Virus genome (UHGV): UHGV-0182515
Origin: a virus
Reading direction: 5' to 3' (one strand)
Length of the DNA stretch: 42,850 bases
The translations under genes and the position numbers were made by a program. Below are positions 5,142 through 41,318 of this stretch, piece after piece. Below the pieces are notes generated by a model, which was not told where the DNA came from, made no database searches, and saw nothing but the letters and a program-made list of their open reading frames with translations. Position 1 is the first letter of the stretch; every line of letters begins with the position of its first letter.

Positions 5142-5302
5142 TTTTTCCCACTCCGCCACATCGCATTCAGATATTTGTTTTGATTCACTGATGGAAAAGA
5201 ATTTCTCTTAAGCAATTCCTCTCTCGATGGCATTGGCTTTACGCGTTGGCGAATAATCATTTCTGCCGGAAGAATGCCGGGATTGTATGCAAGTCCTCTC
5301 AT
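5138..5302 (-). CDS. Small hypothetical protein (about 54 aa)
   Basis: Short ORF filling the gap; the start was chosen to avoid overlap with the upstream gene. Confidence 0.25.
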
Positions 5303-5312
5303 GGTAAATTCC

Positions 5313-5606
5313 TCAGTCATTACTGATAGCGCCATAGCGTGAGCGGTAATTACGCAGGCGCGGGTCAATTTCAGGGAAGTGGGTATATGTGGCTTTGCGG
5401 AATGGTCGGATTGATGTCTGGTAAATTCGCTCGCGTTCTTCTTTCTCTGCAAGCCATATACAATGGCGAAATTCCTTTTCCTCTTTCGTTTCCTGCGGTA
5501 GCGACATTATCCGGTCGTAGTTTTTCCTGAATTTATCCAGCACCTCCGATACGGAATTGCCGGAACAGCGGCGCGCGTCATCCGCACCATACAGAGGCGC
5601 TGGCAT
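5313..5606 (-). CDS. Hypothetical phage early protein (97 aa)
   Basis: ORF in the early operon; no recognisable domain. Confidence 0.4.
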
Positions 5607-5622
5607 GGTTTTCTCCTGTTGA

Positions 5623-6171
5623 TTATTTAGCTAACTTTTTCCAGATCGCTGAAACGTATTTGGCTTGGTGAATGGCATCATCAAGAGCGTTGTGGCGAGT
5701 TCCTTTGAATGGCATATCTCGCTTAGGGTCGAATCCTATTACCTTTCCAAGCTCGACGATTGTTCTTACGTCGCGGTCATTCCACCACTGCCACGGAACT
5801 GGCTGCCCTGTCAGCGAATAACTGTTTCGGAGAATAACGCAGTCAAATGATGCTCCATTCCCCCAAACCTGAACGAATTTGTGGTTAGCGTTCTTTATGA
5901 TGAATTCAGATAACCATGAAAGAGCCGTTGAAAGCTCCTGAGTGTTGCTGGTTAGCGATTTTCTGGCTTCTTCACTCTGTTCCATCCACCATAAAATCGT
6001 TGAAGCGTCAGGACGCGCTCGATATCGCATTGATGACTCAAGCGAGATATTTACCGAGAACTCTTCTCCTGTTTCTCCGGTATTCGGGTCAAAGAATACC
6101 GCCCCAATAGAAATAACTGGCGCGTATGGCCCGTTGCCTATTGTTTCAAGGTCAACCATCAAGTGATTCAT
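5623..6171 (-). CDS. DEDDh-family 3'-5' exonuclease
   Basis: MVDLETIG (Asp/Glu motif I) and H.ALDDA (motif III with His) are present in the translation. Confidence 0.65.
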   Translation of the reverse strand: MNHLMVDLETIGNGPYAPVISIGAVFFDPNTGETGEEFSVNISLESSMRYRARPDASTILWWMEQSEEARKSLTSNTQELSTALSWLSEFIIKNANHKFVQVWGNGASFDCVILRNSYSLTGQPVPWQWWNDRDVRTIVELGKVIGFDPKRDMPFKGTRHNALDDAIHQAKYVSAIWKKLAK

Positions 6172-6179
6172 GTAAGTCC

Positions 6180-6695
6180 TTAAATTGCGTGAATAGCGTG
6201 ACGAGGGAAAGGGAGAGTTACTGGTGCAAAGGGGATATCGTCGTCAAAATCCATAGGTGGTTCGCTGTGATTTCCCTGCTGCTGAGGTTGCTGTCTTTGT
6301 TGCTGACCATTATTTCGCTGAGGTGAAGACTGTTCATTGCCTCCTTGCTTGCCACCAAGCATTTGCATGGTTCCACCAACTCCCACGATGACTTCGGTAG
6401 TGAACCGATCCTGTCCGCTTTGATCCTGCCATTTTCTTGTCCGCAATTTGCCTTCAAGATAAACCTCAGAGCCTTTTCGCAGATATTCGCTGGCAATTTC
6501 TGCCAGTTTCCCGCTCATTACCACGCGGTGCCACTCCGTCTGCTCCTTTTGCTCTCCAGTTTTCTTATCACGCCATTGTTCTGACGTAGCAACGGTAAGG
6601 TTTGCAAATGCCGTTCCTGATGGTGAATATCTGATTTCTGGATCATGCCCAAGGCGACCAATAATGATCACCTTATTTACGCCTCTGCTTGCCAT
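6180..6695 (-). CDS. ssb: Single-stranded DNA-binding protein (phage SSB) with a C-terminal extension
   Basis: N-terminal OB-fold region [16 protein letters not shown].., Gly/Gln-rich linker, and the acidic MDFDDDIPF motif followed by 15 additional residues before the stop. Confidence 0.85.
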
Positions 6696-7403
6696 TTATG
6701 CCGCCTGTTTTAGTTCGTTAACTCTGATGTTCATTACCTGAACGCATTTAGCCTGCGCCTCCTCGTTGCCAGCCATTAATTGCCAGTCACGCTGATAACG
6801 CTCGATGAGTTTTTTCTTGTCAGTTTCTGTCGCTGCATAATCGCTGAAGTCTTTCAGGATTTGTTCGCAGTCAACCGATGGAGATTTCTGGTTGGTATTT
6901 TCTGGTGATGGTTTGTTATCTGATGCTGGGATTGCCCATCCCGGAAGTGATGGAGGGAGCCAGTAAAATCCTGTTCCATCCTTCAGTTTTGCCCTGTGCC
7001 ACCCCTGCTTTTTATCGAGAGATGTTTGTGCGAAACCTTCCTCAAGGTTATACAGATACCTACCGATTCCCCACTGAACGGCAGCGCGCTTCATTGCACC
7101 GGAACGACCACCTTTGACGGCTTCTACCTGCGTGTTTTCAGCAGCATCCCATTTGGTTACCCATTCGGAATCAATCTTTATTGATATGCCGCATTCAACG
7201 CCGCCGTTGTTGGGAATATCGCGGTATTCATTGCGCCATCCTGCTTTGCCGCAAACATCGTCCAGGCGTTTCATGATTGCCCTGTTCGTGACATAAGCCA
7301 GCACCATAGCCCACACCTTTCCATCGCGTGTTTTACCGCTTTGCTGTATTCGCCATTCGATATCTTCAGGGCTGAATGGCTCATCGAATTTGTTCAAATC
7401 CAT
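6696..7403 (-). CDS. Rad52-like single-strand annealing protein
   Basis: Sits where a recombinase is expected next to ssb; the N-terminal region shows the Rad52/Sak-like pattern (..AYVTNRAIMKRLDDVCGKAGWRNEY..). Confidence 0.5.
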   Translation of the reverse strand: MDLNKFDEPFSPEDIEWRIQQSGKTRDGKVWAMVLAYVTNRAIMKRLDDVCGKAGWRNEYRDIPNNGGVECGISIKIDSEWVTKWDAAENTQVEAVKGGRSGAMKRAAVQWGIGRYLYNLEEGFAQTSLDKKQGWHRAKLKDGTGFYWLPPSLPGWAIPASDNKPSPENTNQKSPSVDCEQILKDFSDYAATETDKKKLIERYQRDWQLMAGNEEAQAKCVQVMNIRVNELKQAA

Positions 7404-7502
7404 AATTCACCTCAGAATGGACACGGCCCAAGGAAATAACGCTGATTTAATACTTCGACTCGGGACAAATTAAGGCATACCCGCATTCCTTCGCGGTCGC
7501 CA

Positions 7503-7661
7503 TTATGGCGATACCAGAGAGCTTTCTGCGTGTACATGCGCCTCTGTAACTTGCTCTCCTTCACTGTGGTTGCAAGTGACATGAATATCTCCTTCGTTAC
7601 CGATTAATTCTTTCATCTGACGAATGAATTCTTCGTCTGAACAGTTATCTGTAAAACTCAT
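7503..7661 (-). CDS. Small hypothetical protein in the kil position
   Basis: ATGA overlap with the cIII stop; Cys- and His-containing acidic peptide. Confidence 0.35.
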   Translation of the reverse strand: MSFTDNCSDEEFIRQMKELIGNEGDIHVTCNHSEGEQVTEAHVHAESSLVSP

Positions 7662-7828
7662 GGACGGCCTTGTTGTTTCAAAATATCCCAAATCTTTTCG
7701 AGCAAACTTTTCATTCTTGGTTGTTTAAAGTCTGCTCCGGTTAAAATATTTTTTCGTGAATGCTGTACCGATAAAATCGGGTTGAAAGGGCGAACCGATG
7801 CCGCCCCTGCAATAGCGAACTGTTGCAT
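7658..7828 (-). CDS. cIII: CIII-like FtsH inhibitor
   Basis: MQQFAIAG...LLEKIWDILKQQGRP resembles lambda CIII (MQYAIAG...LIDILNQPG); AAGGAG lies 6 nt upstream of the ATG. Confidence 0.7.
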   Translation of the reverse strand: MQQFAIAGAASVRPFNPILSVQHSRKNILTGADFKQPRMKSLLEKIWDILKQQGRP

Positions 7829-8013
7829 AGGATGCTCCTTCTGTTTGATTGCATAACGAAAACGCCTCGAGTGAAGCGTTATTGGTATGCATATAAAAAG
7901 GCCCTCACACTGGAGGGCAAAGAAGATTTCCAATAATCAGAACAAGTCGGCTCCTGTTTAGTTACGAGCGACATTGCTCCGTGTATTCACTCGTTGGAAT
8001 GAATACACAGTGC

Positions 8014-8202
8014 TTATTCGTCATGCATTTCAGGTAATTCTTCGTATTCGACGCCCCATACGAGTTTACACCAAGTGACTCGCTCATATCTTTTACAAAA
8101 ATCAGACCACATAACTTGTGTTCCATCATGGTTTGTTATTACTTCTGTAATATCACCAACACTAACAAAACTGGTATTAGAAGCAGTTATTTTTACTTTC
8201 AT
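8014..8202 (-). CDS. Hypothetical protein
   Basis: ORF between cIII and N; no recognisable domain. Confidence 0.35.
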   Translation of the reverse strand: MKVKITASNTSFVSVGDITEVITNHDGTQVMWSDFCKRYERVTWCKLVWGVEYEELPEMHDE

Positions 8203-8498
8203 TACTTATCCCCAAGAGCTTTTCTTATTGCTGCGAGACCTTTATTAACAGCTCCATACCATTCTGGATATGTTGTCGTTGTTCTATTTTTGGTTTGCTT
8301 AAGTAATAACTGAAGTGCTTCGAGAAGGTCAGGTGCTGCCGCTATTAGATTGGCATCTTCAATGCATTGAACTTCCTCACAGATTGCAATATACGAACGC
8401 CAGCCTGCGCCATTTTCAAGTGAGTCTGCCTGGATGATTTTAATCTCATCGCCATCCATCATTATTTCCCACTTACCTTCAGTACCTTTAAATTCCAT
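8202..8498 (-). CDS. Hypothetical protein
   Basis: ORF between cIII and N; no recognisable domain. Confidence 0.4.
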   Translation of the reverse strand: MEFKGTEGKWEIMMDGDEIKIIQADSLENGAGWRSYIAICEEVQCIEDANLIAAAPDLLEALQLLLKQTKNRTTTTYPEWYGAVNKGLAAIRKALGDK

Positions 8499-8550
8499 GT
8501 TAGCCTCTGTTGTTTATGCCAAAAATAAAGGCCGACTATGCGGCCATCAC

Positions 8551-8739
8551 TTAAATTTCCTTCCATCCCCAATCAAGCGTTTCAAATGCTACATCACGCA
8601 TGTTTTCGTCTTTTTCGTCCTGATCCATTTCATTCCACTCATTCTCGGATAAGCCAAGATCATCGAGTGTTACAACTGTCTTTTTGCAAGAATGAATGTT
8701 TGCGCCGGAATCCAACCAAATTTCAAATTTACGTTCCAT
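8551..8739 (-). CDS. Hypothetical acidic protein in the ral position
   Basis: First gene downstream of N; 62 aa; no similarity to Ral recognised. Confidence 0.35.
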   Translation of the reverse strand: MERKFEIWLDSGANIHSCKKTVVTLDDLGLSENEWNEMDQDEKDENMRDVAFETLDWGWKEI

Positions 8740-8747
8740 ATATCACC

Positions 8748-9074
8748 TCAAATAAGTGGTTTGCTGCCTAATTTCATTTTCTGGCGACCAACACAAGTCA
8801 CACCCATTTCACTGCGTGGCTTGCTGTACCATGTGCGCTGATTCTTGCGCTCAATACGTTGCAGGTTGCTTTCAATCTGTTCGTGGTATTCAGCCAGCAC
8901 CGTAAGGTCTATCGGATTCAGTGCGCTTTCTACTCGTGATTTCGGTTTGCGATTCAGCGAGAGAATAGGGCGGTTAACTGGTTTTGCGTTTACCCCAACC
9001 AACAGGGGATTTGCTGCTTTCCATTGAGCCTGTTTCTCTGCGCGACGTTCGCGGCGGCGTGTTTGTGCATCCAT
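8748..9074 (-). CDS. N: Antitermination protein N
   Basis: MDAQTRRRERRAEKQAQWKAANPLLVGV..; the Arg-rich N-terminal motif and most of the sequence match lambda N. Confidence 0.9.
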   Translation of the reverse strand: MDAQTRRRERRAEKQAQWKAANPLLVGVNAKPVNRPILSLNRKPKSRVESALNPIDLTVLAEYHEQIESNLQRIERKNQRTWYSKPRSEMGVTCVGRQKMKLGSKPLI

Positions 9075-9257
9075 CTGGATTCTCCTGTCAGTTAGCTTTG
9101 GTGGTGTGGTGGCTGGAGTCGAACCAGCTTCCATCGGTGCGCTGCCGATTGGGTTACGCGCATCCTGCGGTTAGTTGTCTAGAATCTTCACCGCAAAACT
9201 ATTCCCTAGCTCGCCGTTGAGCTTCACCACACCCCAAAGCTTTCTGCTTTGAATGCC

Positions 9258-9288
9258 GCCCTTCTTCAGGGCTTAATTTTTAAGAGCC
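9258..9288 (-). promoter_or_regulatory. nutL (boxB GCCCTGAAGAAGGGC, boxA GGCTCTTAA)
   Basis: Minus-strand sequence GGCTCTTAAAAATTAAGCCCTGAAGAAGGGC; boxB hairpin identical to lambda nutL, boxA differs at one base. Confidence 0.85.
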
Positions 9289-9327
9289 TCACCTTCATGG
9301 TGGTTAGTGCGTCCTGCTGATGGCTAA

Positions 9328-9356
9328 ATAGTACGATTTGTACTTTATTGAGTCAA
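9328..9356 (-). promoter_or_regulatory. pL promoter (-35 TTGACT, 17-bp spacer, -10 TACTAT) with overlapping operator AGTACGATTTGTACT (9330-9344)
   Basis: Hexamers read on the minus strand; a perfect inverted repeat AGTAC-N5-GTACT overlaps the -10. Confidence 0.6.
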
Positions 9357-9420
9357 TACAAAATGTTCTAAATATAATTAGTTTTTTATAACGCTTTGTA
9401 TTTAATGGGTTTATATTTTG

Positions 9421-9450
9421 GAAAAAGAAAACCCGACGCTAAGGTCGGGT
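9421..9450 (-). terminator. Rho-independent terminator downstream of cI
   Basis: Stem acccgac/gtcgggt with a 6-nt loop, followed on the minus strand by TTTCTTTTT. Confidence 0.6.
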
Positions 9451-9481
9451 TATTGTTGTGTATTTTAGAGTTGTGAGGCTG

Positions 9482-10141
9482 TTAACTAAATGTCTCTTCA
9501 GGCCACTGGCTGGCGATAACTTTCCCTACTACGGAACAGCTATCATTGCATGGAATCATTGGATATTGCGGGTTTAGTGGCTGTAGGAACACCTGACCGC
9601 TATCCCTGATCAGTTTCTTGAAGGTAAACTCGTCACCACCAAGTCTGGCTATGCAGAAATCACCTGGCTCAACAGCCTGCTCAGGGTCAACGAGAATTAA
9701 CATCCCGTCAGGAAAGCTTGGCTTGGATCCTGTTGGCGCGGTCATGGAATTACCTTCAACTTCAAGCCAGAACGCACAATCACTGGCTTTTTTGGTTGTG
9801 CTGACCCATCTCTCCGCATCACCTTTGGTAAAGGTTCTAAGCTCAGGCGAGAACATCCCGGCCTGAACATGAGAAAAAACAGGGTACTCATATTGTTTTT
9901 TTAACGGGGGCAGAGAGTATTCGCCAACAGGTGAAAATGTACCGTCGTGGTTGAATGAGACGTTATCAATACCAAGGTATTTAAACACCACACCAATCTC
10001 GTCAAGAGATGGATGACGAGATCCGCGCAACCAGTGACCAATTCCACCCTGCGTCATACCAAGCTCTTCAGCTAACCTCTCTTGAGTTATGCCGAGCTCT
10101 TTCATTCTGGATCTAGCCAGTTCATACCATTTCATTTTCAT
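9482..10141 (-). CDS. cI: CI-type prophage repressor (heterologous HTH N-domain joined to a lambda-like S24 C-domain)
   Basis: C-terminal part [18 protein letters not shown]...EVEGNSM...FKKL... is near-identical to lambda CI (catalytic Ser and Lys present); N-terminal 90 aa are an unrelated HTH domain. Confidence 0.85.
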
Positions 10142-10150
10142 ACCATTATT

Positions 10151-10227
10151 ATTACGCTATGTACTAAAACCATCCATGCACAAGATGTATTTTTTTGTTT
10201 GCATTCTAAAAGTACATATCGTATTAT
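10151..10227. promoter_or_regulatory. oR/pR/pRM region: operator-like sites ATTACgctatGTACT (10151-10165) and AGTACatatcGTATT (10211-10225); pR -35 TTGCAT (10199-10204), -10 TATTAT (10222-10227)
   Basis: Two imperfect copies of the AGTAC-N5-GTACT palindrome seen at pL; the second overlaps the putative pR -10. Confidence 0.45.
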
Positions 10228-10253
10228 TGTTTCATGGTTACTATGGAGGGCAT

Positions 10254-10469
10254 ATGAGCAACCTACGAAAATATCGAGAGTCACTGAATATCTCTCAAAC
10301 AACACTTGCTAAGGCAGTTGGATGCACACAGGGAGCTATCGGACATTGGGAATCTGGTCGTCGCTTCCCAGACCTTAAAACATGCCGTGCTCTTGTTGAG
10401 TGCCTAAACAAGTTAGGCGCAAAAGTCAGTCTTGATGACGTGTTCCCGCCGGAACACAAAGCCGCTTAA
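10254..10469 (+). CDS. cro: Cro-type repressor (HTH, 71 aa)
   Basis: GGAGGG located 4 nt upstream of the ATG; HTH motif QTTLAKAVGCTQGAIGHWESG; divergent from cI. Confidence 0.75.
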   Translation: MSNLRKYRESLNISQTTLAKAVGCTQGAIGHWESGRRFPDLKTCRALVECLNKLGAKVSLDDVFPPEHKAA

Positions 10470-10477
10470 GACATTCT

Positions 10478-10509
10478 CGCTCTTACACATCACAGCCCTG
10501 AAAAAGGGC
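10478..10509 (+). promoter_or_regulatory. nutR (boxA CGCTCTTAC, boxB GCCCTGAAAAAGGGC), followed by a tR1-like region
   Basis: Sequence matches lambda nutR and the lambda cro-cII intergenic region. Confidence 0.85.
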
Positions 10510-10588
10510 ATCAAATTAAACCACACCTATGGTGTATGCATTTATTTGCATACATTCAATCAATTGTTATCTAAGGAAATACTTACAT

Positions 10589-10882
10589 ATGGTTCGTGCA
10601 AACAAACGCAACGAGGCTCTAAGAATCGAGAGTGCGTTGCTTAACAAAATCGCAATGCTTGGAACTGAGAAGACAGCGGAAGCTGTGGGAGTTGATAAGT
10701 CGCAGATCAGCAGGTGGAAGAGGGACTGGATTCCAAAGTTCTCAATGCTGCTTGCTGTTCTTGAATGGGGCGTCGTTGACGACGACATGGCTCGATTGGC
10801 ACGACAAGTTGCTTCGATTCTCACCAATAAAAAACGCCCGGCGGCAACCGAGCGTTCTGATCAAATACAAATGGAATTTTAA
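10589..10882 (+). CDS. cII: CII transcriptional activator
   Basis: MVRANKRNEALRIESALLNKIAMLGTEKTAEAVGVDKSQISRWKRDWIPKFSMLLAVLEWGV.. is essentially lambda CII. Confidence 0.9.
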   Translation: MVRANKRNEALRIESALLNKIAMLGTEKTAEAVGVDKSQISRWKRDWIPKFSMLLAVLEWGVVDDDMARLARQVASILTNKKRPAATERSDQIQMEF

Positions 10883-10904
10883 CAACATCCAACGAGGTAA
10901 TTAT

Positions 10905-11177
10905 ATGCGAAACAAAGGCTTTAATCCACCTGATACACACAAAGAAGCTAAGCGTTTGCGCTTCCTTCGTTCCATTGATGAAAGAACTCAAATCTCTTTT
11001 GTGAAAGTTGCCAGAACTGAGCTTCTGAAGGCTGAGGCGAGGGCGTTGCTCCCGTCTCTACCAAAAGAGGAGGGATATACGTTCATTCCAAACGCATTTC
11101 TGGAAAAGCTTCTCAAAGAAGACATATCCGTAAGTCAGTTTAACGATGTTCTTAAGGTCTTTCGTCAAGGCAGGTAG
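10905..11177 (+). CDS. Hypothetical protein between cII and the replication genes (90 aa)
   Basis: ORF starting at the first ATG after the cII stop; basic; no recognised domain. Confidence 0.4.
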   Translation: MRNKGFNPPDTHKEAKRLRFLRSIDERTQISFVKVARTELLKAEARALLPSLPKEEGYTFIPNAFLEKLLKEDISVSQFNDVLKVFRQGR

Positions 11178-11179
11178 TT

Positions 11180-12127
11180 ATGAGCAATACAGCAAAAATC
11201 TACGATTTCAGCGCCGCACACGAGCGCAGGAGCAACAGGATGGAGAACCAGAAAACTGGTTACATTCCGTTGTACCGGAGCATTCTGAAACAGTCATGGG
11301 CGAAAGATGTTTATCTTCGCACCCTGTGGGAAAACCTTCTCCTGAATGCCGCCAGAAAGCCATACAAAGCGAATTTCAAAGGTCATGAATGGCATCTGCA
11401 ACCCGGTCAACTGGTTGTGACAGCAGCTGATTTAGGTCTTCAGTTATGCGACAGACATGGCAAGCCAGCAAGCCGTGATCAGGTTGAGCGGATGCTTCAG
11501 GTTTTTGTGAAAGAAGGGATGATCTCCATTGATGGAGAGAAGCAAAAAGGTCGTGTGATCACCATCACAAATTACCATGAATATGCTCAAAAAATGGACA
11601 ATTTACCCGCACATGATGCCGCACAAACAACCGCACATGATGCCGCACATGACGAAGCCAGTAATGGCGCAGCTTTCAGCGCACATTCCGCACATGAAAG
11701 CGCACATGAAGCCGCACAAACAACCGCACATCATGAACAAGAAGGTATTAACAAGAATATAAATAATACCCCCCTACCCCCCAATGGGGGCGGCGATGGG
11801 CAGGTTAAACCTGAACGTCGCAAGGCAGAACGAATCGACTACGAATCCTTCCTGAACGCCTACAACACCGAAGTCGGTGACAGACTTCCACATGCTGTTG
11901 CAGTCAACGAGAAACGCAAACGCCGCCTGAAGAAAATCATCCCGCAACTGAAAACGCCAAACGTGGACGGTTTCAGAGCGTATGTCAGGGCGTTTGTGCA
12001 TCAGGCCAAGCCGTTTTACTTCGGAGACAACGACACGGGCTGGACGGCTGATTTTGATTACCTGTTGAGGGAAGATTCGTTAACGGGAGTACGGGAAGGG
12101 AAGTTTGCAGACAGGGGGATTGCATGA
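11180..12127 (+). CDS. Replication initiator, O-like (contains the origin repeats)
   Basis: N-terminus [11 protein letters not shown] resembles lambda O (MTNTAKILNF..); the internal AH/AQ-rich segment is encoded by tandem DNA repeats. Confidence 0.7.
11606..11770. repeat. Putative replication origin: tandem about 12-bp iterons (CCGCACATGAxx) in two clusters followed by an AT-rich block
   Basis: Repeats CCGCACATGATG / CCGCACAAACAA / CCGCACATGACG etc. read directly; AT-rich aacaagaaggtattaacaagaatataaataata follows. Confidence 0.55.
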
Positions 12128-13500
12128 GACAGGATATCGAAGCGAGCGTTATCGGTGGCCTGCTGATTGGTGGATTAACTCCAACCGCCAGCGACGTTCT
12201 GGCAACGCTGGAGCCGGAAGCGTTTTCAATTCCGCTCTACCGGAAAGCCTTCGAGGTTATCCGCAAGCAGGCGCGAAACAGAAATTTAATCGACGCGCTG
12301 ATGGTTGCCGAGGCGTGCGGAGAGGAGCATTTCACGTCAATCCTGATGACCAGCAAAAACTGCCCGAGTGCCGCAAACCTGAAGGGATATGCCGGAATGG
12401 TCGCGGATAACTATCACCGCCGTCTGGTGCTGGAAATCATGGATGAAATGCGTGAACCAATTCAGAGCGGAACCATCGACGCATCGAGTCAGGCGATGGA
12501 TGAACTTGTAAAGCGTCTTTCAGCCATCAGAAAGCCCCGTGACGAGGTTAAACCGGTACGGTTAGGGGAAATCATCACTGACTACACTGACACGCTTGAC
12601 AGGCGTCTGAGGAACGGAGAAGAGTCAGATACCCTGAAGACCGGAATCGACGAACTTGACGCCATCACCGGAGGGATGAACGCAGAAGACCTGGTGATTA
12701 TCGCCGCTCGTCCCGGTATGGGTAAAACCGAACTGGCGCTGAAGATTGCCGAAGGCGTTGCAAGCCGCGTTATTCCTGGTTCTGACGTCCGGCGCGGAGT
12801 GTTGATTTTCTCAATGGAAATGAGCGCATTGCAGATTGCAGAGCGAAGTATTGCCAACGCCGGGAGGATGTCGGTTAGTGTGCTGCGAAATCCTGCATCG
12901 ATGGATGACGAAGGCTGGGCGCGCGTTGCTAACGGCATGAGTCAGCTTGCAGATTTGGATGTATGGGTAGTCGATGCCTCGCGGTTATCGGTCGAAGAAA
13001 TACGCTCAATCGCAGAACGGCACAAACAGGAAAATCCAAACCTGTCACTCATCATGGTGGATTATCTTGGCCTGATTGAGAAGCCGAAAGCAGATCGCAA
13101 CGACCTCGCAATTGCTCACATCTCCGGAAGCCTGAAGGCGATGGCGAAAGACCTGAAAACGCCTGTTATCTCCCTGAGTCAGCTTTCGCGCGATGTTGAG
13201 AAGCGACCAAACAAACGCCCGACAAACGCAGATTTGCGTGATTCAGGAAGCATTGAACAGGACGCAGACTCAATCATCATGCTCTATCGGGAAGCTGTAT
13301 ATGACGAGAACAGTAGCGCCGCGCCATTTGCTGAAATCATTGTGACGAAAAACCGTTTTGGCTCACTTGGTACGGTTTACCAGCGGTTCTGCAACGGACA
13401 CTTTGTTGCATGTGACCAGGATGAAGCCAGACAGATTTGCACAGCATCAAATGCACCTGCTGCGCGTGGCAGACGATATGCACAAGGGGCTGACGTATGA
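12124..13500 (+). CDS. Replicative DNA helicase, DnaB family
   Basis: Walker [13 protein letters not shown] and conserved DnaB C-terminal motifs; start overlaps the stop of the O-like gene. Confidence 0.85.
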
Positions 13501-13573
13501 CCATCTACATCACTGAGCTAATAACAGGCCTGCTGGTAATCGCAGGCCTTTTTATTTGGGGGAGAGGGAAGTC

Positions 13574-14014
13574 ATGAAAAAACTAACCTTTGAAATTCGA
13601 TCTCCGGCACATCAGCAAAACGCTATTCACGCAGTACAGCAAATCCTTCCAGACCCAACCAAACCAATCGTAGTAACCATTCAGGAACGCAACCGCAGCT
13701 TAGACCAAAACAGGAAGCTTTGGGCTTGCCTTGGTGACGTCTCTCGTCAGGTTGAATGGCATGGTCGCTGGCTGGATGCAGAAAGCTGGAAGTGTGTGTT
13801 TACCGCAGCATTAAAGCAGCAGGGCGTTGTTCCTAACCTTGCCGGGAATGGCTTTGTGGTAATAGGCCAGTCAACCAGCAGGATGCGTGTAAGCGAATTT
13901 GCGGAGCTATTAGAGCTTATACAGGCATTCGGTACAGAGCATGGCGTTAAGTGGTCAGACGAAGCGAGACTGGCTCTGGAGTGGAAAGCGCGATGGGGAG
14001 ACAGGGCGGCATGA
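13574..14014 (+). CDS. ninB: NinB (Orf-family recombination mediator)
   Basis: [56 protein letters not shown].. matches lambda NinB. Confidence 0.85.
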
Positions 14015-20433: not shown

Positions 20434-21845
20434 CCTCGATTAATCCTATCTTTGAACCGTTCATTGAGGCGCATCGCTACAAAGTCGCCAAAGGCGGTCG
20501 AGGTAGCGGTAAATCATGGGCAATTGCGAGGCTGCTTGTTGAAGCGGCGCGTCGGCAGCCAGTGCGTATTCTCTGCGCTCGTGAACTGCAAAACAGTATC
20601 AGCGATTCGGTAATCCGGTTGCTTGAAGACACCATAGAGCGGGAAGGGTATTCGGCTGAGTTTGAAATTCAGCGTTCAATGATTCGTCATCTCGGAACGA
20701 ATGCTGAATTCATGTTCTACGGCATAAAAAACAACCCGACGAAGATTAAATCGCTCGAAGGCATTGATATCTGCTGGGTGGAAGAAGCGGAAGCGGTAAC
20801 GAAGGAATCATGGGACATCCTGATACCAACCATCCGCAAGCCGTTTTCCGAAATATGGGTGAGCTTCAACCCGAAAAACATCCTCGACGATACCTATCAG
20901 CGATTCGTCGTAAACCCTCCTGATGATATTTGTCTGCTGACGGTGAACTACACCGACAACCCGCACTTTCCTGAAGTTCTCCGTCTGGAGATGGAAGAGT
21001 GCAAACGCAGAAATCCGACACTGTATCGTCACATCTGGCTTGGTGAGCCAGTAAGCGCAAGTGATATGGCAATCATCAAACGTGAATGGCTTGAAGCTGC
21101 TACCGATGCGCACAAGAAACTCGGATGGAAAGCGAAAGGCGCTGTTGTCTCTGCGCATGACCCATCAGATACAGGGCCGGATGCCAAAGGTTATGCATCG
21201 CGCCACGGTTCGGTAGTTAAGCGCATTGCCGAAGGTCTGCTGATGGACATCAACGAGGGTGCTGACTGGGCTACTTCGCTGGCGATTGAAGACGGCGCTG
21301 ACCACTACCTGTGGGATGGTGATGGTGTTGGTGCCGGGCTACGCAGGCAGACAACGGAAGCGTTCTCCGGCAAGAAAATCACCGCCACGATGTTCAAGGG
21401 CAGCGAATCGCCATTCGATGAAGATGCGCCATATCAGGCCGGAGCATGGGCTGATGAAGTCGTACAGGGCGACAATGTTCGCACTATTGGCGATGTATTC
21501 CGCAATAAGCGAGCGCAATTCTATTACGCGCTGGCTGACAGGCTGTATCTGACATATCGGGCGGTTGTCTACGGTGAGTATGCAGACCCAGACGACATGC
21601 TGAGTTTCGACAAAGAAGCGATAGGCGAGAAGATGCTGGAGAAGCTGTTTGCAGAACTGACGCAGATTCAGCGCAAATTCAATAATAACGGGAAGCTGGA
21701 GCTAATGACTAAGGTCGAAATGAAGCAGAAGCTCGGTATTCCATCTCCTAACCTGGCTGATGCGTTGATGATGTGTATGCATTGCCCGGAGTCGGCTGCG
21801 CAACCCGACTATTCCAGTTACTCAATTCCTTGTGGTGTAGGTTGA
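20430..21845 (+). CDS. Terminase large subunit
   Basis: Walker A KGGRGSGKS, Walker B ICWVEE, and a C-terminal nuclease domain with acidic residues. Confidence 0.9.
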   Translation: MTSINPIFEPFIEAHRYKVAKGGRGSGKSWAIARLLVEAARRQPVRILCARELQNSISDSVIRLLEDTIEREGYSAEFEIQRSMIRHLGTNAEFMFYGIKNNPTKIKSLEGIDICWVEEAEAVTKESWDILIPTIRKPFSEIWVSFNPKNILDDTYQRFVVNPPDDICLLTVNYTDNPHFPEVLRLEMEECKRRNPTLYRHIWLGEPVSASDMAIIKREWLEAATDAHKKLGWKAKGAVVSAHDPSDTGPDAKGYASRHGSVVKRIAEGLLMDINEGADWATSLAIEDGADHYLWDGDGVGAGLRRQTTEAFSGKKITATMFKGSESPFDEDAPYQAGAWADEVVQGDNVRTIGDVFRNKRAQFYYALADRLYLTYRAVVYGEYADPDDMLSFDKEAIGEKMLEKLFAELTQIQRKFNNNGKLELMTKVEMKQKLGIPSPNLADALMMCMHCPESAAQPDYSSYSIPCGVG

Positions 21846-21846
21846 T

Positions 21847-24045
21847 ATGGCAGAAAAAAAGATGACTGACTGGCATCGCAAGGTGCTGTGCAACTTTGAT
21901 AATGCCTGGTCAGCAACGCAGGATATGCGTGAGCAGATTATTGAAGCTCAACGTTTCGTCCGGGTGTCCGGCGCACAGTGGGAAGGCAGCACAAACGCTG
22001 GTTACTCATTTGATGAAGGCAGGTTTGAGCATTACCCGCGCTTTGAGCTGAATAAGATTGCCCGTGAATGTGATCGCATCATTGGCGAGTATCGACAGAA
22101 TCGCATCAGCGTTAAATTCAGGCCGAAGGATGACAAGGCATCGGAAGCGTTAGCCGAAAAGATGAACGGCAAATTCCGCGCTGACTATCAGGAAACATCC
22201 GGTGGCGAAGCGTGTGATAACGCATTTGATGATGCTGTAACGGGCGGATTCGGTTGTTTCCGCATGTGTGCCGATTACGAAGATGAAATGGATCCGAGTA
22301 ACGAGCAGCGACGCATCAGCCTTCTTCCTGTTTACGACCCAGCGACATGCGTCTTCTTCGATCAGGACAGCAAGCAATATGACCGCTCTGATGCTATGTG
22401 GGCTATGGAAATGTTCTCCATGACGCCTAAAGCGTTCGAGGCTGAATACCCTGATTCCATCGCGGCAAGCCTTTCTCGTGATGACACTGGCACTCAATAT
22501 GACTGGTCAACTCCTGATGCTATCTATGTTGGTCGCTACTACGAAGTTCGCATAGAGAAGGTGAAGCTCACAGCATGGCGTAACCCTGTCAGCGGAGAAA
22601 CGGCAATCTATGATGAAGAGCAAATCAAAGATATTGTCGACGAGCTGACCGATGGTGCATTCGAACTGATTGGCGAGCGAACGGTGAAGAAACGCCGAGT
22701 TTATTGCGGTCTTCTGTCTGGCGCTGAATGGCTGGAAGAACCGAAGCGTATTCCGGGCGAACATATTCCTCTCATCCCGGTATATGGGCGTCGTTCATTT
22801 GTTGATAATCAGGAGCGAATCGAAGGCCACGCAGCAAAAGCGATGGATGCACAGCGTCTTGAGAACCTGATGGTTTCCATGATTGCAGATAACGCTACTC
22901 AGGCTGGCGGTGATGGCATTCCTGTAGTTGATGTTGACATGATTCCTGGTCCTCTTGCCACTCATTGGGCGGAGCGCAACAAAAAGCGCCCGGCGTTCCT
23001 GCCGATGGTCAGTTTGAAAAACAAAAACGGAGATATTACTGCGCAGGCTCAGGTCAGCAGTTATACGCCTCCGACACAAATGCCTCCAGCTCTTGCCGGG
23101 CTATTGCAGTACACCGGAACGGCTATTCAGCAAATTACAGGTGCGTCGCAGCTTGAGAACATGCCGAGCAACGTCGCCACCGATACCGTTGATAGCATCT
23201 TTAACCGGATGGACACGCAGTCCTATATCTACATGGACAACATGGCTAAATCTATGCGTCGCGCTGGCGTTGTGTGGCTTTCTATGGCGCGTGAAGTCTA
23301 TGGCAGCGATACGCCGATGCGTATCGTTAATGAGGACGGCAGCGATGACGTGGCGCTGATGACTGGTGAAGTGGTTGACCGTCAGACAGGGCAGGTTATC
23401 GCGCTTAACGACCTTTCGCAGGGTAACTACGAAGTGACTGTCGATGTCGGTCAGTCGTTCGCTACTCGCCGTGATGCAACGGTTAAGTCGTTACTTTCCA
23501 TGCTGGCACTTATCCCGCCAGGGACGCCGAAGCACGACCTTGTATCGTCGATGATTCTCGACAATATGGACGGAGAAGGGATGGACGACCTGAAAGAATA
23601 CAACCGCAATCAGTTGCTTCTGTCTGGAGTTATCAAGCCGAGAACGCCAGAAGAACAGCAGATGGTTGAGCAGGCGAAACAACAACAGGCCAGTCAGCCA
23701 GATCCGGCTATGGTTGCTGCGCAAGGTCAGCTTCTTGCTGGTCAGGCTGAATTGCAGAAAGCGCAGAACGAACAGGCAGCCATTCAGGTTAAAGCATTCC
23801 AGGCACAGACTGATGCTCAGGTTGCAGCGGCAAATGTTGTGAAAATCCTCGCATCTGCCGATAGCCAGCAGAAATCTGATATCCGCGAGGCTCTGAAACT
23901 GCTCGGACAGTTCCAGCAACAGCAAGGAGACAATGCCCGTGCTGATGCAGAGCTTGTCCTGAAAAGTCAGGCACAGGGTCATGCGCAGCGCATGGACATC
24001 AGCAGCATCCTGCAAAAATCAACTCAGCAACAACCACAGCAGTAA
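21847..24045 (+). CDS. Portal protein (P22 gp1-like, with a long C-terminal helical barrel)
   Basis: Shares recalled P22 gp1 motifs (DPAMV.AQGQLLAGQAEL.KAQN, RMDI..ILQ); 732 aa. Confidence 0.85.
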   Translation: MAEKKMTDWHRKVLCNFDNAWSATQDMREQIIEAQRFVRVSGAQWEGSTNAGYSFDEGRFEHYPRFELNKIARECDRIIGEYRQNRISVKFRPKDDKASEALAEKMNGKFRADYQETSGGEACDNAFDDAVTGGFGCFRMCADYEDEMDPSNEQRRISLLPVYDPATCVFFDQDSKQYDRSDAMWAMEMFSMTPKAFEAEYPDSIAASLSRDDTGTQYDWSTPDAIYVGRYYEVRIEKVKLTAWRNPVSGETAIYDEEQIKDIVDELTDGAFELIGERTVKKRRVYCGLLSGAEWLEEPKRIPGEHIPLIPVYGRRSFVDNQERIEGHAAKAMDAQRLENLMVSMIADNATQAGGDGIPVVDVDMIPGPLATHWAERNKKRPAFLPMVSLKNKNGDITAQAQVSSYTPPTQMPPALAGLLQYTGTAIQQITGASQLENMPSNVATDTVDSIFNRMDTQSYIYMDNMAKSMRRAGVVWLSMAREVYGSDTPMRIVNEDGSDDVALMTGEVVDRQTGQVIALNDLSQGNYEVTVDVGQSFATRRDATVKSLLSMLALIPPGTPKHDLVSSMILDNMDGEGMDDLKEYNRNQLLLSGVIKPRTPEEQQMVEQAKQQQASQPDPAMVAAQGQLLAGQAELQKAQNEQAAIQVKAFQAQTDAQVAAANVVKILASADSQQKSDIREALKLLGQFQQQQGDNARADAELVLKSQAQGHAQRMDISSILQKSTQQQPQQ

Positions 24046-24135
24046 TTAACCCATAACGTGCAATGGCTGTCTTTATGAGGCCTGGCACCCTATTGCCTTC
24101 CGATGGGCTGAACATCGAGTAAACAGGGGTAACAA

Positions 24136-25029
24136 ATGGACCAGATGGCAGAAAACACACCAGAAGTTGAAATCGAAACCGACGCGTCAGAGCAGATTCC
24201 TGATGATGTCGAACTGGCTGAAGAAGTCGAAACAGAAGATGGCAGTGAGTCCTCCGGCAATGATGCAGAGGAAGCTACTGAAACTGATGACGACGAATCA
24301 GAACAGGAATTCTACTTTGGTGACGAAAAGCTGGATTCGCCAACCAGCGAAGATGGCGCAGAGCATGGACTGGTAAAACACCTGCGCAAGACGATTAAAG
24401 AGAAAGACCGCGAGCTGAAAGAGCTGATGCGTCAGTCTCAGAAACCCGTCGAGCAGCAGCCGGTAATAACTCAACCACCGCGAATGCCAAAACTGGATGA
24501 TGAGGACATCGGTTTCGATGAAGAAATCTACCAGCAACGCATGGCTAAGTGGGCAGAGGATAACGGCAAGTACCAGCAACAGGAGATGGCTCGCAAGCAG
24601 AAGGAGCAGGAGCTTCAGGCTGCCTATCAAGAGCGATTATCCAAATATCAGCAACGTGTTAAGGCTCTCAAAGTTCCTGGCTATCAGGAAGCAGAACAGG
24701 CCGTACTCGAGGAAATCCCCATCGAGACACAAAACGCGATCCTGTTTGAGTCAGAGAAGCCGGAAATCGTTGTTCTGGCGCTCGGTCGCAACGCTGAACT
24801 GCGCAAGCAACTGGCAGAAGCTACCAACCCCGTAGCAATTGGTCGTCTGCTGGAACGTATCGAATCGAAGGCCAGAGTCATGCCAAAAGCAAAAACCACG
24901 GCAGCCACAACCCCGACAGTTAAGGGGAGCAACGGCGCAGTAATCAACAACCTCGGCAAATTGAAAGCCAAGGCGCTGGAAACTGGTGACTGGACGCCGT
25001 ATTTCGCCGCTAAAAAGGCAAAAAAATAA
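24136..25029 (+). CDS. Scaffolding protein
   Basis: Acidic N-terminus, coiled-coil middle and basic C-terminal helix-turn-helix; located between portal and coat as in P22. Confidence 0.75.
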   Translation: MDQMAENTPEVEIETDASEQIPDDVELAEEVETEDGSESSGNDAEEATETDDDESEQEFYFGDEKLDSPTSEDGAEHGLVKHLRKTIKEKDRELKELMRQSQKPVEQQPVITQPPRMPKLDDEDIGFDEEIYQQRMAKWAEDNGKYQQQEMARKQKEQELQAAYQERLSKYQQRVKALKVPGYQEAEQAVLEEIPIETQNAILFESEKPEIVVLALGRNAELRKQLAEATNPVAIGRLLERIESKARVMPKAKTTAATTPTVKGSNGAVINNLGKLKAKALETGDWTPYFAAKKAKK

Positions 25030-33850: not shown

Positions 33851-34333
33851 TTATTTTATAGTTTTTATGAATTCTTTATTAAATCCCTTAGCTTCTCCGG
33901 GGTATCTTCCAAAGACAATTTTTATAAAAACAGAAAAAATAAAGATAGCAACGCTTAACAACAGTTGCAGTATCATTGGAACCCAAAGAACTACAGGCTC
34001 TATATTCATGAAACCAAATATTCTTCCGGCGATCATGGCGAAGTACCACACTGTTATCAGCAAACTTAGTGGCATATGAATTACTGATATTACCAATCCA
34101 AGAGCATCAGTAATTCTATTTTCAAATTTTTCAGGGGAAAACTTTTCTTTAAGGTAATTAAGTGCGCAGGTCTCATTCTCTGGATTTTCAGCATTTTTCC
34201 CTATGGCAATAGAAATCTCAGATATCCTTGATTCAATTCTTTTGCGTTTAATAAAACTAGAAAAAAAGAACCACGCAATCTGCAACCCTATCCCCATAAA
34301 TAGAGTTGCGGCAACTAGCACAGCGTAACTCAT
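33851..34333 (-). CDS. Inner-membrane protein in the sieA position (putative superinfection exclusion); may start at 34417
   Basis: Three hydrophobic TM segments; AT-rich codon usage; sits between the ejection genes and immI, where P22 carries sieA. Confidence 0.45.
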
Positions 34334-34395
34334 AGAATCAGACACACCAACCTCTTTAGTTTTTCTAGTTACTTTGTCACGATAGGATATGCGAA

Positions 34396-34605
34396 TTGAT
34401 AAAACTAAATTACGCACATGATAACTCAGTAATAATTGTTAATGAAAACATGATCACCTATATTGCACAAGGCGAAACAGGAAGCATAATCTGGTTTCAT
34501 GAGTGTGATCACGTTTGGGTAAATCAAAGTCAAGAGGAAATACTTGAAATTATCAAAAATAACTATCTAAACGTTGCACACGACTCATCTATCCATTTTT
34601 CATAA
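34396..34605 (+). CDS. Small hypothetical ORF (doubtful)
   Basis: 69-aa ORF on the opposite strand between two minus-strand genes; no RBS seen. Confidence 0.15.
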
Positions 34606-35144
34606 AATTGTATACCGAGATGGGCAAGAACAGATGGATGTATATCAACAAGCTTTTCGCCAAGATGTTCTGTTGGAGGTGGATAATCTTTGCCTTGGTT
34701 TCTTACGGTTATAGGCATAGTTGTTGCTGGATGAAACTCAACTATCATAGGGTCGCCTTCGTATTTTGCTATTTTCCCTGTTGAATCAATGATTAACTCT
34801 TTAATATAATGGCTTCTTGCTCCAGGAAATGCCCCAAGAGTAGTATAAGGAGGTTCAAGTTTTGAGATTTCCATAGTGGAATGATGATCAGCATTTCTTG
34901 CTTGGTGAAGGTAAGCAAGTGTTTTGTCTGTTTTTCTAAGCATGAACTTTTGGTTGAAGTGGCTGCTAAATTTTCCACTAACCGGCTTTGTTGCACAGAG
35001 CAACTTACTGAAAGACTTTTCTATATGCCCAAGACATTCTCGCCAGTGCATTTCAAAATCATCATGGTTTGTAGATGATTTCATCTGCTCTAGGCACTTT
35101 TTAGCTGCGATGATTTCTTTTTTTGCTGGGTTGTAATCGATCAT
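34563..35144 (-). CDS. Unknown cytoplasmic protein (193 aa) translationally coupled to mnt
   Basis: Start ATG overlaps the mnt stop (ATGA at 35141-35144); AT-rich; no recognised domain. Confidence 0.55.
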   Translation of the reverse strand: MIDYNPAKKEIIAAKKCLEQMKSSTNHDDFEMHWRECLGHIEKSFSKLLCATKPVSGKFSSHFNQKFMLRKTDKTLAYLHQARNADHHSTMEISKLEPPYTTLGAFPGARSHYIKELIIDSTGKIAKYEGDPMIVEFHPATTMPITVRNQGKDYPPPTEHLGEKLVDIHPSVLAHLGIQFYEKWIDESCATFR

Positions 35145-36728: not shown

Positions 36729-37229
36729 TTACCTACTCAACAGATGGTCAGCAACCATGTTTGCTGCCTTATAAGCTATAGCCGCTTCATCAATGGTGTT
36801 GAATCTCCCAAGGGTTATGTTTTTACCTGAGACATTTATCTGAGCTTGCCATTGATTTCTGGCTTGACAGAAAGTTACCCCCTTGATTCCAGCATTGCTA
36901 TTTCGAGGTCCGACATTTAATGCATTTACGACTCTGCTGACATCCCTAAGGTTTGAGATTGCGTTATTTCTTCTGTTTCTATCAATGTGGTCAATCTCTT
37001 GTTTGGGCCATTCGCCATATACATACAGCCAGGCAAGTCTATGTGCAAAATATCTTACGCCATCAATATTAATTGCGTTATATCCATAAGAAATTGTGCC
37101 AGCAACTTTCCCAACAGCACCTCTGGCGCTTAATTTCTTTTTCCAAGTGAAAATTCCTGTTTCTTTATTGTAATCGAGAACCTCCATAAGGCGCTCCCGA
37201 GTTACTACCTCGTGACGTCTCTTACTCAT
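36729..37229 (-). CDS. HNH endonuclease with AP2-type DNA-binding domain
   Basis: HNH region [32 protein letters not shown] and an AP2-like segment [41 protein letters not shown] upstream of the ATG at 37229. Confidence 0.7.
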
Positions 37230-37242
37230 TATTTTCTCCGGA

Positions 37243-39726
37243 ATGTTTATTATGCCAGAACAATTATACAACGTAGTTGTTTCACAACCAAGTCAGTTAT
37301 TTACTTTAGCTCGCTCGTTTAAAGCAAATGCCAATGGCAAAATTTATATCGGTAAAATTGACACTGACCCGGTAAATCCAGAAAACCAGATTCAGGTTTA
37401 TGTAGAGAACGAAGACGGCTCTCACGTTCCTGTTTCGCAACCAATCATCATTAACGCTGCCGGATATCCGGTATATAACGGACAGATTGCCAAATTCGTT
37501 ACCGTGCAAGGCCATTCTATGGCTGTTTATGATGCGTATGGTGCGCAGCAGTTTTATTTTCCCAATGTGCTGAAGTATGACCCCGATCAGCTACGGCAGC
37601 AATTAGAAGATCCAGATGGCGCTAAAAAATATCCTGAGTTGCAGATGGCACGATGGAGAGATTGTGGAGATGTTAGAGGGTGGGGAGCAAAAATAGATGG
37701 GGAAACAGATGATTCAGATGCTTTTATTAAAGCTTTAAACTCTGGAAGGTCGGTTATAACAATTCCGGAAGGAATATGCATCATCAAGAAGAATATTAAC
37801 ATTCCTGAGGGGTGTTCACTGGTTGGATCTGGCATTGATTATTGGGATACATATAGACCAGCGCCTGAAAGATTATTAAAAAGTTGGAGTAAAGGAACCC
37901 ATCTTGTATTTACTGGTGATGGAGAAAAAAACAAATATTTTTTTAACATCTCTAATGAAAGACCGGTTAAAATTGTTGAGGGGATATCTTGTAAGTTCAC
38001 TGAGTTTACGAATGAAGATTCTGTAGGTGTTACTCCTGCTACACCAAAAGCCATGAGCGTAGCTGTTAGTATCAACAGGGCATCACAGTTACGCAATCTG
38101 AGAATAATGGTAAGTAAAAATGGTATTGAAGGATACAATAACCCTGATTCTTATTCATTGGGTGATAACTGGGATATAGGGTTGCATGTATACGATAGCT
38201 GTGATTCAGTTATTGATAACGTACAGATTGTCGGCTATTGGAGGGTAAAAGGACTACTACTGACAGAAAATGACGGGAGCCTTTCAATGAAGGGAAATCC
38301 TGAAAAAACGCACTTTAATAACGTTTATGTCCAGTCAGGAATCGCGATAAGGAATAGCCCTCAGATTGATCTTGTAAGTAATACTGAAAGCTCAGTGACA
38401 TTTAAACATAAAAAGTCGATGAGAATAACTTCAGTTAAACAGTTTAAAATTGCTGGCAGTGAATCAGTATATACGTATTCAGATGCATCATTTGATGGAA
38501 CTAACATCACACTATCTGGTATTTCTCCTGAAATACAAGGTACAATAAGTGTAATCAGGTTTCCGTCAATTGGTAATAATTTTAGCGGGACTGTTTTTGA
38601 GAATACAGTAGCCACTACTCTTGATCATACATCAGGTAAGCCATCAGAATACTTTGGCCTTCCTGCATCCTTTGCATTAGAGGTTGATGGTTTCCCTGTT
38701 CGTAATTTAAGGTTTGATAAATTCAAAGCTCAAACAACATTTGATAAAGGAAATTGCATTTTTGGTGATTGCCGTGATGTTAAAATAACATCATCTGAGT
38801 TTGAAAATGGAATTATGATTGCGTATAACCTGACCGAGACTCAGGGTTATACAGGAAATCTTAGATTTTTTGCTTCTGATCTTCAGAGCAGCGTTAACAC
38901 AAGTGAGTTTAAACCAAGAGACGCATTTGTAGACAATAGACAAATAAAAACGGAGTTTACTGATGGTTCGTTCATTATAAAGAACTGGAGGCCTACAGAT
39001 ACAAAAATACAATGGTCGTCTGGAGTAGATGCTATTGTTCTTAGAGAGTCACCTGACGAACAATCAAACGGAAATATTTACGGGTATCACATTGATGGTA
39101 AAAGATGGATTAATGTTAGTGGATATAACAAAGATATAAATATTTCATCAAGAAACTTAAGCGTAAAAAACCATGGTGATGACTCTACAGTTATTAATAT
39201 ATTCGGCGACTCTGGAAATATTGCCATTAAAGGTAATTTTTTACCAATTATTGATAACAGCAAATCTCTTGGTGCACCATCATTTAGATGGGCTCAGATT
39301 TATTCTGCATCCGGGACTATAAGCACATCAGATGAAACACTTAAAACAATATATGACATTACTCAGGCAGAGCGTGATGCTGCGCTGGAAATAAAGGGAA
39401 TTATATGCAAGTTCAGGTTTAATGAGTCGATTAATTTTAAAGGATTGGAGTTATCAAGGTATCATTTTGGAGTTGGCGCTCAAACCGTAGGAGATATTCT
39501 TAGAAAGCGTGGTTTAAATCCTGAGCAATATGCTTTTTGGTGTTACGATGAATGGCCAGACGTATGGGATGAAGAGGTGATAACTGAAGAGAGCACAGAT
39601 CCTGATACAGGTGAGAAAATTTATTCTCAATATAAAACAGGAAATATGATTCTTGTAAAAAAAGCAGGTGGACGCTACGGAATTCGTTATGACGAATTGG
39701 CTATGTTTATATTAATGGCAATGTAG
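37243..39726 (+). CDS. Tailspike protein (P22-type head-binding N-domain, distinct receptor-binding domain, C-terminal intramolecular chaperone)
   Basis: N-terminal about 120 aa resemble P22 gp9 ([46 protein letters not shown]); the C-terminal about 130 aa carry an SDETLK motif typical of the self-cleaving chaperone domain (peptidase S74 type). Confidence 0.8.
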
Positions 39727-39744: not shown

Positions 39745-39775
39745 ATCCCGCATGAAAACTGCGGGATTGTTTTTA
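39745..39775 (+). terminator. Rho-independent terminator after the tailspike gene
   Basis: Stem atcccgca/tgcgggat with a 7-nt loop, followed by a T-rich run. Confidence 0.6.
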
Positions 39776-39923
39776 TCTAGTGTATTTGTGAGTTTTAAAT
39801 AAAATTTGGTATGGATTCTTGCATCGTAGTGAACGCATGATTACCTATGAAACAAAACTGAGACACACAAAGCTTTGCACTGGATTGCAAGGCTTTGTGC
39901 TCTTCGATAGTGGTTAAGGTGGT

Positions 39924-41081: not shown

Positions 41082-41243
41082 GGGTAAAAATCCGGTGGGT
41101 AAAATTATTTTATCCACTTTTTACCCGTCATGGAGTGCGGCTGTCAACGATCTGACGTGAACCATTACGAACTGTAAATCTACGGAAGGCTTGATATTCA
41201 GGGGATTTTGCGGACTGCTACGGATGGGAGCGAACTGATAAAT

Positions 41244-41258
41244 GGTGTCCCCTGCAGG
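41244..41258. repeat. attL core candidate (15 bp, identical to 992-1006), the 3' end of argW
   Basis: Exact direct repeat read from the sequence. Confidence 0.6.
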
Positions 41259-41318
41259 AATCGAACCTGCAATTAGCCCTTAGGAGGGGCTCGTTATATC
41301 CATTTAACTAAGAGGACA
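41244..41318 (-). tRNA. argW: tRNA-Arg (anticodon CCU)
   Basis: Reverse complement GTCCTCTTAGTTAAATGGATATAACGAGCCCCTCCTAAGGGCTAATTGCAGGTTCGATTCCTGCAGGGGACACCA folds as a cloverleaf with 7-bp acceptor stem, T-loop GGTTCGATTCC, anticodon loop CUCCUAA and CCA end. Confidence 0.85.

Follow-up and report, generated by a model that had tools for sequence, protein, structure and literature searches.

A modular P22-like tailspike with a predicted self-cleaving chaperone and a probable K14 capsule target

Introduction

Phage CUS-3, which is specific for the K1 capsule (CP000711, gene siaK1), carries a tailspike made of three parts: a head-binding domain of P22 type, a catalytic body specific for the capsule and, at the C-terminus, a peptidase S74 chaperone. 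We found the same plan in a tailspike gene of UHGV virus genome UHGV-0182515, a stretch of 42,850 nucleotides that we call the window. Both genes lie in P22-like prophages of extraintestinal pathogenic Escherichia coli and are about 90% identical over nucleotides 88-446 of the gene, and a CUS-3-like endosialidase tailspike (P0092) is 33% identical over residues 664-819. The bodies are different: that of CUS-3 is a sialidase beta-propeller (PF12217, PF12218, PF12195) acting on polysialic acid, whereas that of the window is an unrelated, predicted right-handed beta-helix, with the K14 capsule as its predicted substrate. The spikes of P22 (gp9) and Sf6 (gp14) have a homologous head-binding domain (about 88% identical in Sf6), the same position at the prophage end adjoining int, and the same general beta-helix class. 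However, they show no sequence similarity to the window tailspike past residue 121, have no C-terminal chaperone that is cleaved off and are directed at O antigens. The chaperone matches those of endoNF (phage K1F) and T5 pb1 in sequence and fold, including a Thr-Ser pair followed by a Lys at +5 at the start of the domain (compare T910-S911-K916 of endoNF). Here identity is about 20%, the upstream part is a beta-helix spike instead of an endosialidase or a long fibre, and cleavage of the window protein is a prediction. Finally, a fibre encoded by an epsilon15/BPP-1-like prophage that adjoins yfgI (strains ECONIH2 and Combat2C1; P0006) carries the same receptor-binding cassette as the window, in genomes with a K14 locus.

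The tailspike annotation, the three-part design (from CUS-3) and the modular exchange of receptor domains are thus already known. On the last point, the accessible text of Pas et al. 2023 (PMC10408124) describes the horizontal movement of receptor-binding domains from one phage genus to another, the joints being marked by conserved motifs; the subtypes in that text are tied to O serogroups, whereas the window cassette is tied to a K locus. The predicted K14 specificity appears to be new. We found no K14-specific E. coli phage enzyme in the literature searched, where coverage of older subscription journals is thin, and no paper on phage DIJ06P1 turned up there; K14 is missing from a 2025 list of the E. 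coli K types for which phage depolymerases are known (PMC12488582). Taken as a whole, the gene probably encodes a modular P22-like tailspike with a self-cleaving chaperone and a K14 capsule target.

A tailspike made of three modules

The open reading frame (ORF) at 37243-39726 on the plus strand is intact and encodes 827 residues. E. coli Combat2C1 has a gene that is 99.9% identical in nucleotide sequence, annotated in RefSeq as 'phage tailspike protein' (WP_021549864.1) and starting at the second ATG, at 37252. A product of 824 residues from this ATG is the likelier one, given the RefSeq start and the comparison with the N-terminus of P22 gp9, in which the spacing to the NVVVS motif is presumably the same. 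Residue numbers refer to the 827-residue frame and are three higher than in the annotated protein. No NCBIfam model matched the tailspike. The elements of the gene are the following:

37252..39726, plus strand: tailspike gene (likely ATG 37252, 824 residues; longest ORF from 37243, 827 residues)
37252..37590, plus strand: head-binding (tail-hub adaptor) domain of P22/Sf6 type, residues 4-116, from Pfam PF09008 and PDB matches
37594..37829, plus strand: junction segment, residues 118-196, with linker helices and the first beta-helix turns, partly common to many otherwise unrelated E. coli phage spikes
37669..38931, plus strand: predicted right-handed parallel beta-helix, putative capsule depolymerase body, residues ~143-563, from an AlphaFold2 model
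37830..39334, plus strand: exchangeable receptor-binding cassette, gene nucleotides 588-2092, residues 196-697, 98.5-98.7% identical in nucleotides to part of a 918-residue fibre of an unrelated podovirus-type prophage
38932..39327, plus strand: C-terminal beta-rich region of the mature spike, stalk or tip, residues 564-695, with lower-confidence beta-strands in the model and a conserved G-T-I-S-T motif at its end
39325..39345, plus strand: predicted autoproteolysis site, Thr695/Ser696 (nucleophile, 39328-39330) with Lys701 (general base, 39343-39345)
39328..39723, plus strand: C-terminal intramolecular chaperone domain of peptidase S74 type, residues 696-827, with predicted release after trimer folding

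We are highly confident of the division into head-binding domain, beta-helix body and S74-type chaperone. The first of these is covered by the full Pfam profile Head_binding (PF09008, profile positions 1-113) at residues 4-116, with an E-value of 2e-64 and 215.3 bits against a cut-off of 24. Sf6 gp14 (7sg7) is the closest solved structure (residues 7-121, E-value 7e-61), and the structures of P22 gp9 align over residues 9-121 only (E-value ~1e-46). An initial annotation of this DNA had limited the resemblance to gp9 to the first 120 residues or so, and these matches bear it out. It had also described the central part as unrelated to gp9 and AT-rich. This stands for the sequence and for the composition: GC content is 0.367 in residues 121-827 (0.27 at third codon positions), compared with 0.419 in the head-binding part and 0.471 in the whole window. 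It does not stand for the fold, since the modelled body would fall in gp9's broad fold class despite the lack of sequence kinship.

The junction segment is shared more widely. The CUS-3-like P0092 is 89% identical over residues 4-166, residues 121-185 match Kayfunavirus and 'K5 lyase' phages with 40-62% identity, and PF12708 matches at residues 144-199. A relation to K5 lyases was considered and dropped because the phage features annotated 'K5 lyase' match residues 121-173 only; the chromosomal K5 lyase ElmA is similar in length to the tailspike.

We aligned 56 homologues, of 31-97% identity, and used the alignment to build an AlphaFold2 model of the monomer. Its mean predicted local distance difference test score is 80, with most 10-residue blocks above 90 between residues ~143 and 563 and low confidence in the head-binding domain. 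Structure prediction was the check that the initial annotation had suggested, and the model indeed gives a right-handed parallel beta-helix: residues ~143-563 form, in one chain, the succession of short strands that is typical of this fold. In the same 56 homologues, D308, W310, D311, E342, D344, E354, R370, H462, E480, D501, D512, E521 and D564 are near-invariant. The ten Asp or Glu residues among them, together with W310, R370 and H462, are compatible with an active glycanase. We set aside PHROG 8280 ('colanic acid degradation', residues 10-371) as a clue to specificity, because the head-binding domain makes up most of the match and the rest is distant similarity, with ~27% identity to such spikes in tblastn.

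A chaperone with a predicted self-cleavage site

In phmmer searches, the final 132 residues matched intramolecular chaperone domains of known structure: the tail fibre of Klebsiella phage Kp7 (7y5s, E-value 2e-16), the L-shaped tail fibre T5 pb1 (4uw8, 5e-13), the endoNF chaperone (3gw6, 2.8e-9) and phi29 gp12 (3gud, 1e-6). Foldseek also matched the modelled domain to 3gw6 (E-value 3.9e-9, probability 1.0). The assignment of the last 130 residues or so to the endosialidase-type chaperones, made initially from the SDETLK motif, is thereby upheld, and the motif does start at codon 696 (39328-39330). A precomputed PF13884 match is present in most homologues of the tailspike.

Around the motif, T695, S696 and K701 are each retained in 54 of the 56 homologues, and D697 in 52. 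The segment aligns with the sites of endoNF, IVT(A)NGERKT in the S911A crystal construct, and of T5, INT(A)DARLK. The cut in endoNF lies directly N-terminal to Ser911, with Lys916 as the general base and Thr910 preceding the Ser, as stated in PMC3828593, which cites Schulz 2010. By analogy at the sequence level, self-cleavage between Thr695 and Ser696 is very likely in the window protein.

A cassette shared between unrelated prophages

The identity profiles of the gene have sharp joints at nucleotides 350, 588 and 2092. The closest relatives of its parts are given below, in gene nucleotides.

10-350 (residues 4-117): phage Kapi1 tailspike, 98.8% nucleotide identity, ending at the YDPDQL motif
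~88-446 (residues ~30-149): CUS-3-type spikes, ~90% nucleotide identity
588-2092 (residues 196-697): 918-residue tail fibre of a different prophage, 98.7% nucleotide identity
2035-2483 (residues 679-827): YDC107_2, 86% nucleotide identity

The suggestion that the receptor-binding module had been swapped is well supported by these joints and by the near-identity of the cassette in the fibre of an unrelated prophage. The N-terminal adaptor of the 918-residue fibre is a different one, and its S74 chaperone (SDGREK...) is divergent. The nucleotide identity of the fibre gene to the window stops directly after the Thr-Ser-Asp codons, at the Ser696-Asp697 joint, so the right-hand joint falls where cleavage is predicted. 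The homology for the exchange was probably supplied by the conserved I-x-T-S-D motif. A 901-residue E. coli tailspike (P0047) has nearly the same head-binding domain and chaperone around a body that is ~40% identical. Among the homologues, the unit of body and chaperone is joined to at least five families of N-terminal adaptors (PF09008, PF18668, PF12236, PF12571 and PF03906).

The second, podovirus-type prophage with the cassette adjoins yfgI in both Combat2C1 (21763-24237 of locus L019) and ECONIH2 (5228-7984 of locus L002). RefSeq classes the gene of the 918-residue fibre as a pseudogene 'missing C-terminus'; the ORF of ECONIH2 is intact and ends in the divergent S74 chaperone.

The cassette tracks the K14 capsule locus

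We searched 5426 complete E. coli genomes and found the central cassette in 29 of them, 20 times in a P22-type spike and 9 times in the 918-residue fibre. Region 2 of the group 2 capsule locus of Combat2C1 has three genes, encoding a hexapeptide O-acetyltransferase, a 760-residue fusion of GT2 and KpsS/KpsC-type parts, and a UDP-hexose 4-epimerase. This K14-type region 2 is present in 108 of the 5426 genomes, and in at least 28 of the 29 with the cassette (20/20 with the P22-type spike and 8/9 with the fibre). The association spans at least three allele groups of region 2, four O types, two unrelated phage backbones and three insertion sites: argW, sbcB-dacD (strain DP051) and next to yfgI. 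Both prophage types occur together in Combat2C1, each with the same cassette. The kps locus is ~800 kb from argW, and physical linkage is therefore not the cause of the association.

The repeat unit of the K14 polysaccharide consists of N-acetylgalactosamine and 3-deoxy-D-manno-oct-2-ulosonic acid (Kdo) with O-acetyl groups, which would fit the three genes of region 2. The locus was named from strain JJ1886, whose region 2 is the same at 98.0% identity and whose capsule locus is labelled K14 in a figure legend of PMC10866875. The polysaccharide that Jann et al. described in 1983 came from an O6:K14:H31 strain (cited in PMC7387560), and K14 polysaccharide contains beta-Kdo (PMC12887879; bioRxiv 10.1101/2025.01.29.635457). 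The galE-like epimerase gene is annotated as frameshifted in Combat2C1 (38692-39710 of locus L014) and is intact in DP051 (10064-11083 of locus L015).

Alternative targets and activities

We consider the K14 group 2 capsule, a Kdo-containing polymer, to be the probable target of the cassette in preference to the O antigen, because the cassette tracks the K14 locus across two prophage types while O types vary. Several points weigh against a self-cleaving, K14-directed spike. The p-value for the association of cassette and region 2 (Fisher's exact test, p = 1.5e-48) overstates the support, since several genomes are clonal. In GF43 (NZ_CP172127.1), the one cassette-positive genome outside the K14 set, the kps locus was not found at 4343000-4415000, its expected place beside the pheV-type island. 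The K14 label comes from in-silico typing of a locus that is 98% identical, not from serology of cassette-positive strains. The presence of a prophage attests that the lineage was once infected, but not that the receptor is in use now, and the doubly lysogenised Combat2C1 may have an altered K14 capsule or none. Two Pfam matches of the tailspike are also below their thresholds: PF12219 (End_tail_spike) at residues 653-695, with 21.2 bits against a cut-off of 25, and PF13884 (Peptidase_S74), with 19.4 bits against a gathering score of 22. In judging the S74 assignment, such scores count less than direct homology and a conserved dyad. If the spike were instead an O-antigen-specific endoglycosidase like those of P22, Sf6 and HK620, its target would be the O6 antigen of the host. 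The O antigen is the classic target of P22-like tailspikes, the strain closest to the window (Combat2C1) is O6, and O6 is found in 6 of the 29 cassette-positive genomes compared with 154 of the 5426 overall (p 1.3e-4). We attribute this enrichment to an O6:K14 clone. O-antigen specificity was dropped because the O loci of the lysogens, read from RefSeq wzx/wzy names, gave O6, O5, O83 and O25, with none common to all: Combat2C1 is O6, DP051 is O5, CRKP-1 is O25, and one member of the 654-sequence protein cluster comes from an O25b:H4-ST131 (sequence type 131) strain. An O6-directed spike is thus very unlikely.

The K14 capsule being the preferred target, the activity on it and the fate of the C-terminus can be weighed in the same way. 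The beta-helix might only bind the glycan or modify it, for example by deacetylation, or the prophage copy might be enzymatically dead: catalytic residues could not be assigned, the fold class has non-hydrolytic members such as epimerases, esterases and adhesins, and at position 309, most often Asp in the family (29 of the 56 homologues), Asn is found in the window copy. However, this position is variable (D, N or E), so that Asn is no clear defect; many acidic residues are near-invariant over a family of such diverse sequences; and the nearest structural matches are mostly active depolymerases. A spike that does not cut is accordingly a minority prospect, and enzymatic cleavage seems reasonably likely. 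Even less can be said for a C-terminal domain that is kept on the mature spike, where it would serve as a tip with a structural or receptor-binding role. Processing is invisible from sequence and the PF13884 score is subthreshold for this protein, but the conserved Thr-Ser pair and the Lys at +5 line up with the sites that experiments defined in endoNF and T5, and a recombination joint exactly at the site marks the domain as a separable unit. We regard a retained tip as highly improbable.

Proposed mechanism

With a K14-directed, self-cleaving spike as the favoured interpretation, the protein would work as follows. The N-terminal domain would dock a trimer on the tail hub. The S74-type chaperone would help the C-terminal part of the trimer to fold and then cut itself off at Thr695/Ser696 through the Ser696-Lys701 dyad, leaving ~690 residues in the mature spike and 132 in a free fragment. 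The beta-helix bodies would bind, and probably hydrolyse, the K14 capsule, allowing the virion to reach the outer membrane.

Prophage context

The tailspike gene occupies the right-hand end of a complete P22-like (Lederbergvirus-type) prophage, which is integrated at argW; its place is that of P22, where the late operon ends and the immI region and int adjoin. The gene order is portal, P22-type capsid, gp4, gp10, needle, DNA-transfer proteins, two Arc-family genes, antirepressor, an HNH/AP2 gene on the opposite strand, and tailspike. Past its 3' end come intS, argW and the host gene yfdC. The elements flanking the tailspike are:

36729..37187, minus strand: HNH/AP2 endonuclease gene, head-to-head with the tailspike start (Pfam HNH_3, 2e-16; AP2, 3e-6)
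39745..39777, plus strand: terminator-like hairpin and T-run, 19 nucleotides past the stop codon
39924..41317, minus strand: prophage integrase IntS and tRNA-Arg(CCT) argW (41243-41317), the prophage end

The longest ORF of the HNH/AP2 gene overlaps the ATG at 37243, an arrangement that is the same in phage Kapi1. Possibly its product acts as a homing endonuclease and favours exchange at the 5' end of the tailspike gene.

Apart from the immunity and replication region (7661-14011), the window and the prophage of Combat2C1 are collinear; the prophage of the window is a different mosaic. Outside this region the Combat2C1 prophage is 99.4-99.9% identical, and IS100 sits in its replication gene. 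Two AT-rich ORFs on the minus strand, at 33851-34417 (188 residues) and 34563-35144 (193 residues), separate the DNA-transfer genes from the arc/mnt region. They had no match in Pfam or PADLOC and are candidates for lysogenic-conversion or exclusion genes. The P22-like prophage of DP051 (NZ_CP156034.1, 1860795-1889042), at sbcB-dacD and ~20 kb from the his-gnd-O-antigen region, apparently lacks head and lysis genes. Its antitermination gene abuts the gene of a DUF2824 protein, and its tailspike is intact and 99% identical to that of the window.

Implications

In genome surveys, K14 ranks in the top five capsule types by frequency in European bloodstream isolates, has the second-highest estimated invasive potential, and occurs in the multidrug-resistant lineages CC131 and CC69 (clonal complexes 131 and 69; PMC13171598). 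Phages with the cassette would use the K14 capsule of extraintestinal pathogenic E. coli for adsorption and tunnel their way through it, in the manner of CUS-3 on K1. On balance we favour the view that the cassette is a K14-specific depolymerase, cleaving a polymer that contains beta-Kdo, and that it has spread by module exchange between two unrelated types of temperate phages preying on K14 extraintestinal pathogenic E. coli, including ST131. If this is true, the spike could serve as a reagent for capsule typing, as an anti-virulence (decapsulating) enzyme, or as a module to retarget phages and tailocins. The locus also bears on the rules by which tailspikes are built: one receptor cassette is found on two adaptors and with two chaperones, and one of its splice points coincides with the predicted self-cleavage site of the chaperone.
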